The position numbers and the translations under genes are program-made. Under the pieces are notes generated by a model that searched no databases, was not told the DNA's origin, and worked only from the letters and a program-made list of their open reading frames with translations. From the sequence record PZ452610.1: a DNA stretch of 64,000 nt; one strand, given 5' to 3'. The stretch is from a phage. Below, piece by piece: positions 48,087 to 50,088 of this stretch; positions within the stretch are counted from its first letter, which is position 1, and each line of letters starts with the position of its first letter.

Positions 48087-48335
48087 TCAGAGGTTGATTG
48101 ATACAACGCGTTTGATAAAATTCACTTCACTTACTGAAAGGTCTTTAAGACCGATTGATTCTAAACGCTGAGTAAGCGTCAACATCGGGATATAATCCCA
48201 ATGAGTTTTATTTGCTTGATAAGTACGAACGCCATTAGCAATTTCAACATGCAAATCGGAAATGGTAACGAATACCGGACGTTCGTCATTAACTTTAAGG
48301 GTTAGAACAACTTTCTTTGAATCTAAACTAATCAT
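48087..48335 (-). CDS. hypothetical protein (82 aa)
   Basis: ORF track. Confidence 0.5.
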   Translation of the reverse strand: MISLDSKKVVLTLKVNDERPVFVTISDLHVEIANGVRTYQANKTHWDYIPMLTLTQRLESIGLKDLSVSEVNFIKRVVSINL

Positions 48336-48514
48336 GACTTAATTTCCTTCGCAATTGAACAGAAGATACCACGGTCACAAAGCATTTCACCAATTTCTGG
48401 ATATTTGATTGAACGGTACCAAACATCCAGGCTTGAAACTCTGGTTATCTGTACTGCATTACCGTTGACAGAATAGTACTGGTCAACCTTAATTTCTTTA
48501 TCTTCAATTGTCAT
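48332..48514 (-). CDS. hypothetical protein (60 aa)
   Basis: ORF track trimmed to MTIEDKEI start with AGGA RBS; early promoter upstream. Confidence 0.45.
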   Translation of the reverse strand: MTIEDKEIKVDQYYSVNGNAVQITRVSSLDVWYRSIKYPEIGEMLCDRGIFCSIAKEIKS

Positions 48515-48543
48515 TTTATTTTCCTCTGTGGTAGATGGTGTTA

Positions 48544-48572
48544 ATCTTAACATATCTATCGAGGATGTAAAC
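48544..48572 (-). promoter_or_regulatory. early-type promoter
   Basis: Minus strand GTTTAC, 17 bp, TAAGAT; AGGA RBS of 48332..48514 follows. Confidence 0.4.
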
Positions 48573-48681
48573 TGGTTTTATGAAAATATTTTTGATTTGA
48601 GAGGGGCACAAGGAGATAGTGAAGTGAAGATTCCAATGGATTATATTAGAAATGAGATAAAGAAGACCAGGCGGCACCTGG

Positions 48682-49005
48682 TCAATCTTCTATGATATCA
48701 GAGTCGTATCCTAATGAAATCAAGGACTTTTTAAACTCTGCAATATTCTTTTGTTTCTTATCATTTAAAAATATGACAGGATAACGAATATTAAGTGAAG
48801 TGAATCCTGCACGTTTAGCAAGAGATACGATTAAAGGTCGGTCATATTCAATCTTACCATTATTAGTGAGGACTTTATAAAATGTATAAGGAGCATTGAG
48901 CTCCTTTAAAAGTTTTGTAACAGTATAACATCCTGGACAACGTCCTACTTCTTCAGGGATGCCATAAATTTCAATCTTGTTCTTTAAGTTCGAGTTTTGT
49001 TCCAC
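48682..49005 (-). CDS. nrdH: glutaredoxin-like protein (NrdH-like), start codon uncertain
   Basis: KIEIYGIPEEVGRCPGCYTVTKLL has a CPGC redox motif; no in-frame ATG before the domain, GTG at 49003-49005 proposed; immediately upstream of nrdG as in T4. Confidence 0.5.
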   Translation of the reverse strand: MEQNSNLKNKIEIYGIPEEVGRCPGCYTVTKLLKELNAPYTFYKVLTNNGKIEYDRPLIVSLAKRAGFTSLNIRYPVIFLNDKKQKNIAEFKKSLISLGYDSDIIED

Positions 49006-49288
49006 GAGAAATAATTCCTTGGTAAGCCCAATAAGGAGGATTAACAGAATCCTCGCCAGAGTTTTCTTCAGGAAAATAAACCTGGATAACAAATCCAGAT
49101 GCATCAAAGGTAAAATAAACCGTAGGCAGTTCACCTAACAATTCGGCACGAGCATTAATTTCTTCGAGATCTCGTTCACGTCCAGCCCAAAAACTAGGAT
49201 TTAGATTACATTCGTAAAAATAATAGTCATTACCGAACATATCAAACCCCTTCCAACTCTCTACCACATACCGCTCAAAACTAATCAT
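48971..49288 (-). CDS. hypothetical protein (105 aa)
   Basis: ORF track; 3' end overlaps start region of glutaredoxin ORF. Confidence 0.5.
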   Translation of the reverse strand: MISFERYVVESWKGFDMFGNDYYFYECNLNPSFWAGRERDLEEINARAELLGELPTVYFTFDASGFVIQVYFPEENSGEDSVNPPYWAYQGIISRGTKLELKEQD

Positions 49289-49290
49289 AA

Positions 49291-49506
49291 TTAAGCCTTT
49301 TTATCAAGAACAGAATTCAGTTTATTAGTAATTTTGTCCAAACGTTCATTGAATTCGCTGGAGGATAAACCCTTTTCCGGAGAAATTAAACTAATCACGA
49401 AAAATACACCAGTAAAAGGAATAAGAAAAATAGCTCCAACTGCCATAAACAAAAAGAACGTTACAGTTGTAAGAAAATCAGCTAAACCTTTACGAAATTT
49501 ATACAT
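49291..49506 (-). CDS. small membrane protein (71 aa)
   Basis: ORF track; one strongly hydrophobic segment. Confidence 0.5.
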   Translation of the reverse strand: MYKFRKGLADFLTTVTFFLFMAVGAIFLIPFTGVFFVISLISPEKGLSSSEFNERLDKITNKLNSVLDKKA

Positions 49507-49617
49507 ATTTACCCTTAATTAATTAACCAAGCATTGATAAGCAAACCATATTGCGAATAAAATTCTGGACCAAAATGAAAAATCATATCATTTATAGTAT
49601 CCATAATGTAGTTCAAT

Positions 49618-50088
49618 TTAATCATGTTTCCACACCCCATTGGTATTCGACCAAAGTCGCTGATTATCTGATCCTCGCCACAGTTTTTTGGTCGGAAGAT
49701 TTTTCTCATACTTCCCATCAATAATAACATCAACATATTTAAGCATTTCTAGTTGTTTAATATCTTCAAACTTATATCCTGTCCACAACCAAATGCTTTT
49801 ATTGGGATAAATATTTTTTACTGTTTGAACAATGCAATGAACAACATCTCTATTATCAGGATAGAGAGGGTCGCCTCCGGTTATAGTCAATCCTTCTATA
49901 TAATCATTATTCAAACATTCAATTAATTGTTCTAGTGTCTCTCCAGTGAATGGAGCACCATTTCTAGCGTTCCATGTTGATTTATTATAACACCCTTCAC
50001 ATTTATGCAAACAACCTGTAACGAAAAGAACGACCCTGCAACCAGGGCCATTCACAAAATCGCAAGGATAAAATCTATCATAATTCAT
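49618..50088 (-). CDS. nrdG: anaerobic ribonucleotide reductase activating protein (radical SAM)
   Basis: 156 aa; CLHKCEGC radical-SAM cysteine motif; downstream of nrdD. Confidence 0.9.
   Translation of the reverse strand: MNYDRFYPCDFVNGPGCRVVLFVTGCLHKCEGCYNKSTWNARNGAPFTGETLEQLIECLNNDYIEGLTITGGDPLYPDNRDVVHCIVQTVKNIYPNKSIWLWTGYKFEDIKQLEMLKYVDVIIDGKYEKNLPTKKLWRGSDNQRLWSNTNGVWKHD

Follow-up and report, generated by a model that had tools for sequence, protein, structure and literature searches.

Positions 48,682 to 49,134 of a phage sequence of 64,000 nucleotides (record PZ452610.1; the whole stretch is called the window below) raise the question of where a small glutaredoxin-like protein begins, and whether its synthesis depends on the gene that it overlaps. 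A mechanical open reading frame of 150 codons occupies 48682-49134 on the minus strand, which carries all features given below. Its C-terminal ~100 residues begin KIEIYGIPEEVGRCPGC and contain a CPGC redox motif, and its first 43 codons encode a hydrophobic stretch (VNCLRFILPLMHLDLL...) lying wholly inside a 105-aa ORF in another frame (ORF105; 48971-49288), as a preliminary description of the sequence had reported. That description found no in-frame ATG, pointed to a GTG at 49003-49005 as the plausible initiator, and considered a non-ATG start, coupling to or frameshifting from ORF105 and, as the case that would overturn it, a membrane-anchored product of 150 aa. We put at roughly 0.9 the probability that the locus is a T4-type nrdH gene, predicted to encode 107 aa from GTG 49005-49003 in the end of ORF105, and that the extension upstream of this codon is non-coding. 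An nrdH gene with a GTG start overlapping the upstream gene is already known and ordinary, and both RefSeq and the T4 record give nrdH this GTG. T4-like phages routinely have GTG starts and neighbouring genes that overlap.

By megablast, the Mosigvirus members Escherichia coli O157 typing phages 3, 6 and 13 are 100% identical to positions 48300-49700, and many other T4-like phages are 97-98% identical; the source is a T4-like Mosigvirus. In RefSeq record NC_041863 of typing phage 3, which is identical to the window, a glutaredoxin CDS of 324 nt maps exactly to 48682-49005, from the GTG to a TGA stop, which identifies the flagged gene as the nrdH of a T4-like phage. The same record places a hypothetical protein at 48971-49288 (ORF105) and a 55.8 homologue at 49291-49506, with nrdG and nrdD upstream. 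The 55.8 homologue, a predicted membrane protein, was assigned by its match to phrog_1930 (E=1.9e-35) and the annotation of T4 gp55.8. The order nrdD-nrdG-55.8-(ORF105)-nrdH is thus that of T4 except for the extra ORF105, with 55.8, ORF105 and nrdH tightly packed (2-nt gaps or overlaps), and this arrangement is conserved in hundreds of T4-like phage genomes. Directly after the nrdH stop, a terminator scan identified an intrinsic-terminator-like hairpin (48665-48683; GACCAGGTGCCGCCTGGTC then TTCTTTAT, 8 pairs), as would be expected if the nrdD-nrdG-55.8-ORF105-nrdH block ended with nrdH; between 55.8 and nrdH the scan returned no terminator-like site except one internal consensus match.

Two further observations concern the sequence downstream of nrdH. 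The GC-rich hairpin at 48665-48683 scores as a terminator on both strands, and may be a bidirectional terminator or merely a symmetric stem. Beyond it, a mechanical 73-aa ORF at 48332-48553 is a homologue of T4 55.6, for which RefSeq gives 60 aa from ATG 48514; this ATG has a strong Shine-Dalgarno (SD) sequence, GAGGAA (-6.0 kcal/mol), and the upstream ATG at 48553 has none (+0.3 kcal/mol).

The family membership of the predicted 107-aa protein can be read from several comparisons. It matches T4 nrdH with 86% identity over residues 8-107 (100 aa; tblastn, E=3e-53), as well as phrog_22, the PHROG thioredoxin-domain family (E=1.2e-15), and gives a borderline hit to the Pfam Glutaredoxin model PF00462 (21.0 bits, E=3.8e-4), just below the gathering cut-off of 22.9. 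The CPGC active-site motif, read from the sequence after KIEIYGIPEEVGR, lies at 48928-48939 and corresponds to residues 23-26; the CxxC follows the first beta-strand (IEIYG...C-P-G-C), and 12 diverse phage NrdH sequences all retain both C23 and C26. In the nrdH-only region, variable sites are distributed 14/7/50 over the three codon positions, a third-position periodicity in the nrdH frame. An AF2 model predicted from the single sequence was of poor quality (pLDDT 47.1). Homology, motif and synteny all place the predicted NrdH of the window in the T4 NrdH group; Petrov et al. (2010, PMC2993671) count nrdH as one of the quasi-core genes for auxiliary metabolism in T4-related phages.

The start itself is marked by a ribosome-binding site. 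AAGGA at 49020-49016 precedes GTG 49005-49003 by exactly 10 nt, as the preliminary description had noted, and belongs to an SD sequence AAGGAA (49015-49020) that lies inside the ORF105 codons Gln-Gly-Ile. The anti-SD duplex energy for this GTG, -5.4 kcal/mol, is the best of all ATG, GTG and TTG candidates in the ORF and equals or beats that of most neighbouring genes checked; the spacing of 9-10 nt, near the upper limit of what is usual, counts against the GTG. The SD core is invariant within the Mosigvirus and Tequatrovirus group and takes the form AAGGAG, AAGGTGG or AAGGGG in other genera. T4 nrdH has an annotated GTG start in AAGGAATAGTTGTGAAACAAAATAAGATTGAA, preceded by the same AAGGAA, the start region of the Mosigvirus-like PTE-Eco05 reads AAGGAATAATTGTGGAACACAAC, and that of the window reads AAGGAATTATTTCTCGTGGAACAAAAC; the SD and the start context GTGGAACA are common to all three, and the GTG of the window is therefore the homologue of the T4 nrdH start. 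The junctions compared were ...AGTAAGGAATAGTTGTGAAACAAAATAAGATTGAAGTC in T4, ...GGCAAGGAATAATTGTGGAACACAACAAGATTGAA in PTE-Eco05 and ...CCAAGGAATTATTTCTCGTGGAACAAAACTCG...AAGATTGAA in the window, and PTE-Eco05 NrdH is identical to that of the window from residue 9.

To place this start in a wider context, we collected junctions from GenBank phages, IMG/VR contigs and metagenomic contigs encoding ORF105 relatives, yielding 22 distinct ORF105+nrdH junctions from Mosigvirus, Tequatrovirus, Gaprivervirus, Dhakavirus, Kanagawavirus, Mosugukvirus, Winklervirus-like phages and metagenomic lineages (about seven genera). Every one of the 22 has a start codon at the homologous position, namely GTG in 19, TTG in two (EcS1/Kc304-like phages) and ATG in one; the comparison with nrdH starts of related phages that had been suggested at the outset thus bears out the proposed initiator. 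Throughout, the start codon spans two ORF105 codons, taking two bases from the end of codon 95 (CGT, TGT, AGT, CTT or TAT) and one from the beginning of the invariant Gly96 codon, and nearly all junctions have an SD-like AAGGAG, AAGGAA, AAGGTGG, AAGGGG or AGGGGA 8-10 nt upstream, with merely a weak GGT-rich match in the two TTG-start Winklervirus-like junctions. An in-frame stop lies one or two codons upstream of the start in VR7, ECML-359 and the sequences L081, L040 and L041, making a longer protein impossible there.

Additional constraint on the N-terminus comes from more distant proteins. NrdH homologues in lineages that lack ORF105 (Jiaodavirus, Karamvirus, Pseudotevenvirus RB16 and Krischvirus, and Citrobacter, Proteus and Acinetobacter phages) have their ATG start 4-10 codons ahead of the IEIYG Tyr, and residue 3 of the T4 glutaredoxin structure (1ABA/1AAZ) aligns to residue 12 of the 107-aa protein. 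Together with the in-frame stops and the common junction position, these ATGs and this alignment place the N-terminus within a few residues of the GTG. Our literature search for N-terminal sequence or ribosome profiling of NrdH in this phage or T4 found nothing, the T4 start being an annotation. Given the RefSeq annotation, the T4 homology and the start codon in 22 of 22 junctions, the suggestion of a non-ATG start is strongly supported, and GTG 49005-49003 is, on comparative grounds, almost certainly the real nrdH start.

Two variants of the junction deserve description in their own right. TTG is the sole possible nrdH start in L040 and L041 (Winklervirus-like, EcS1/Kc304) and in L078, with an in-frame stop one codon upstream; non-AUG initiation of nrdH therefore appears to recur in several T4-like lineages, others using ATG. 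In the Dhakavirus-like contig IMGVR_UViG_2974741249_000001 (L061, 485-703), an in-frame deletion of 99 nt in nrdH removes the CPGC motif and leaves a product of 72 aa, and the homologous start position has ATG instead of GTG (ORF105 Cys95 to Tyr).

The upstream gene, ORF105, gives a full-length match to phrog_2749 (E=4.7e-49), and variable sites in the ORF105-only region fall 5/6/45 over its codon positions, a third-position excess in the ORF105 frame; a third-position excess in each gene's own frame was also found in the Gaprivervirus/Dhakavirus and Kanagawavirus groups. Its last 35 nt (48971-49005) are dual-coding, nrdH being in the +1 frame relative to ORF105, and specify both the ORF105 tail ...RGTKLELKEQD before its stop and the NrdH N-terminus M-EQNSNLKNKI. 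Among lineages the overlap measures 20-35 nt (21 two-frame junctions, Pectobacterium phage PM2 excepted). ORF105 was found in 527 phage records, adjoins nrdH in every locus and listed match inspected, and falls into 28 protein clusters, all of 90-105 aa. The nrdH SD and start are encoded within its only strongly conserved C-terminal motif, W-x-Y-Q/E-G-x-I-S/T-x-G, in which Gly96 does not vary and Gly91 is nearly invariant. Past Gly96 the ORF105 tail varies in length and sequence, as would follow if nrdH exerted the main constraint there.

Within both Tequatrovirus and Mosigvirus, ORF105 is polymorphic for presence or absence: about 527 of about 1350 nrdH-bearing phage records carry it, and T4, T2 and PTE-Eco05 lack it. 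In T4 (L002, 1180-1200) and PTE-Eco05 (L003, 780-800), the nrdH GTG follows the 55.8 stop by 2 nt, and the ORF105 ATG of the window (48971-49290) sits where the nrdH GTG sits in phages without ORF105 (TAATTATG compared with TAGTTGTG or TAATTGTG). In Shigella phage CT01 (OK018184; L008, 811-1074), a deletion leaves the 55.8 membrane protein running into the final ~28 ORF105 codons (...ITNKLNSVNPPYWAYQGIISRGTKLELKE, then stop); the nrdH SD and GTG remain intact, and the microhomology ATTCTGTT occurs at both breakpoints.

Three other accounts of how the domain might be expressed have to be weighed against initiation at the GTG, two of which would yield a longer protein. One holds that the full 150-aa ORF, or a 140-aa form initiated at ATG 49104, is translated as a glutaredoxin with a hydrophobic N-terminal membrane anchor. 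The frame is indeed open from 49134, its first 43 codons are hydrophobic, and the ATG at 49104-49102 (codon 11) corrects the preliminary statement that no in-frame ATG exists. However, neither upstream start has an SD (+0.1 and, for the ATG, -2.4 kcal/mol, a weak anti-SD pairing), and this ATG is missing in phage ESCO47 and is separated from the domain by in-frame stops in VR7-type, L081 and CT01 sequences; it is biologically irrelevant. Moreover, across the 129 nt upstream of the GTG in seven Mosigvirus/Tequatrovirus sequences, 22 of 27 variable sites are third positions of ORF105 and hence second positions of the nrdH frame, so that the extension peptide changes freely between near-identical phages whereas the ORF105 peptide is nearly constant. 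In-frame stops directly upstream of the GTG, seen in T4 in addition to the five sequences named above, point the same way. The 43 codons at 49006-49134 are accordingly best described as a spurious extension that is, from the substitution pattern and the stops in relatives, predicted to be non-coding, and a membrane-anchored 150-aa glutaredoxin, to which we assign next to no probability, is effectively refuted by the comparative data. Under a second account, an ORF105-NrdH fusion would arise by programmed ribosomal frameshifting (+1 or -2), or by slippage during transcription, close to the 3' end of ORF105. In its favour are the adjacency of the two genes in every locus inspected and the case of PM2 (NC_028940; L050, 207-806, and L079, 401-1000), where the ORF105 homologue and NrdH share one frame annotated as a single 199-aa 'glutaredoxin'. 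Yet no second fusion appears in the listed phage records or in the 28 clusters, where long ORF105 proteins are absent; the other records listed by tblastn have the genes in two frames. The PM2 junction AGTGGAAAAAAATATCC is an A7 run, and A8 would restore both a GTG-started nrdH (MEKKYPKIEIYG...) and an ORF105 tail SGKKIS, then stop, resembling the RGNKIS ending of L083 and L084; we therefore attribute the fusion to an error in the homopolymer or to a recent loss of 1 nt, and reject this singleton as evidence for programmed frameshifting. The window overlap contains no slippery heptamer, A-run or stop-associated +1 motif, no slippery site is conserved across lineages, and both the overlap sequence and the ORF105 stop position differ among them. 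No stimulatory RNA structure was predicted around the start (MFE -16.6 kcal/mol against a shuffle mean of -20.7, z=+1.35), an Rfam search of the junction region gave no match, and a small SD-sequestering hairpin was predicted in VR7 only and is not general. Frameshifting from ORF105, raised in the preliminary description, thus appears extremely unlikely.

The remaining account keeps the same product but ties it to ORF105 termination: NrdH would be made mainly by termination-reinitiation after the ORF105 TGA (48973-48971), in strict dependence on ORF105 translation, either by ~30 nt of back-scanning to the GTG or by restart at an ATT (48975-48973) that overlaps the stop as ATTGA. Dense packing of 55.8, ORF105 and nrdH would suit such a mechanism, as would the position of the nrdH start 20-35 nt upstream of the ORF105 stop in 21 of 21 two-frame junctions (PM2 excepted) and the weak start codons (GTG or TTG) in 21 of 22 ORF105-bearing junctions, several lineages without ORF105 using ATG. 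Post-termination ribosomes reportedly scan bidirectionally over tens of nucleotides, as Adhin and van Duin are said to have observed in 1990 in E. coli and phage MS2. T4 and PTE-Eco05, however, keep the GTG and SD though they lack ORF105, so this start codon can do without ORF105; reinitiation alone would have no need of the good SD that is conserved, and the two facts together indicate that SD-directed initiation would suffice. The ORF105 stop also varies and often lacks the ATT overlap (in PYPS2T, for example, a TAA lies two codons earlier), and no SD precedes the ATT (-0.9 kcal/mol), which was rejected as a start on both grounds. We consider strict reinitiation very unlikely. Translational coupling in a looser sense is plausible, the start lying within the upstream gene with a 35-nt overlap in a co-oriented block, as in coupled overlapping genes. 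A more far-reaching version, in which an nrdH ribosome-binding site and non-AUG start hard-wired in the ORF105 motif of at least seven genera would impose an obligatory coupling that sets the ORF105-NrdH ratio of a redox module serving the anaerobic ribonucleotide reductase, strikes us as improbable; if true, the in-frame fusion of PM2 would become a 'Rosetta stone' for a physical partnership of ORF105 and NrdH.

We thus propose that a cytoplasmic NrdH of 107 aa is translated from GTG 49005-49003 via the AAGGAA located 9-10 nt upstream. Both signals lie in the last codons of ORF105 (W-x-Y-Q-G-I-I-S-R-G), with the genes overlapping by 35 nt in different frames, and the 150-codon open frame would represent only an alternative-frame read-through of ORF105. 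Ribosomes translating or terminating on ORF105 probably help initiation at the weak GTG through translational coupling, and standard SD-directed initiation would be sufficient for nrdH expression.

The importance of the locus lies mainly in annotation quality, since gene callers treat nrdH inconsistently. The gene is unannotated in some records, including HX01 (JX536493) and PV390659, and L082 (956-1270) holds an intact, GTG-started nrdH of 103 aa, yet has no gene call between 979 and 1327. In Q7622 (OL989991) nrdH is annotated from an upstream start as 113 aa, and in PM2 the 199-aa fusion is annotated instead of nrdH. A simple rule for annotating the nrdH start would be to take the last two bases of ORF105 codon 95 with the first base of the Gly96 codon.

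Among known systems, the closest is T4 NrdH itself (formerly ORF Y55.7, the second T4 glutaredoxin), described in a T4 GenBank note as 'related to T4 thioredoxin but has glutaredoxin activity'. The window gene resembles it in the CPGC motif, its place after nrdD-nrdG-55.8, the GTG, the AAGGAA and the terminator after the gene, and differs in an N-terminus longer by 5 residues (MEQNSNLKNK versus MKQNK). T4, T2 and PTE-Eco05 also lack the additional 105-aa gene, whereas the nrdH start of the window is buried in the 3' end of ORF105. The closest solved structure by sequence (E=0.01) is the T4 glutaredoxin/thioredoxin NrdC (PDB 1ABA, 1AAZ, 1DE1, 1DE2); residues 12-83 of the window protein align to chain residues 3-73, with the CxxC after the first beta-strand in the same register. 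However, the sequence relationship is weak, NrdC is encoded by another gene elsewhere in the genome, and the window motif is CPGC, unlike the CVYC of the wild-type NrdC active site. The bacterial NrdH-redoxins, reductants of class Ib ribonucleotide reductase such as E. coli NrdH, are likewise small CxxC redoxins associated with ribonucleotide reductase genes and share the name. In contrast, phage nrdH lies beside the class III genes nrdDG, and no NCBIfam model, in a set that should include one for NrdH-redoxin, matched the window protein at E<=0.01; the common name does not indicate orthology with the class Ib redoxins. In its arrangement, the junction is similar to the coupled overlapping gene pairs of phage and bacterial operons, having a start and SD inside the upstream coding sequence, in another frame and within a packed, co-oriented block. 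It differs from them in the length of the overlap, 20-35 nt here compared with the 1-4 nt of the common ATGA and TGATG arrangements, and the coupling that we infer for nrdH would operate across this longer overlap.
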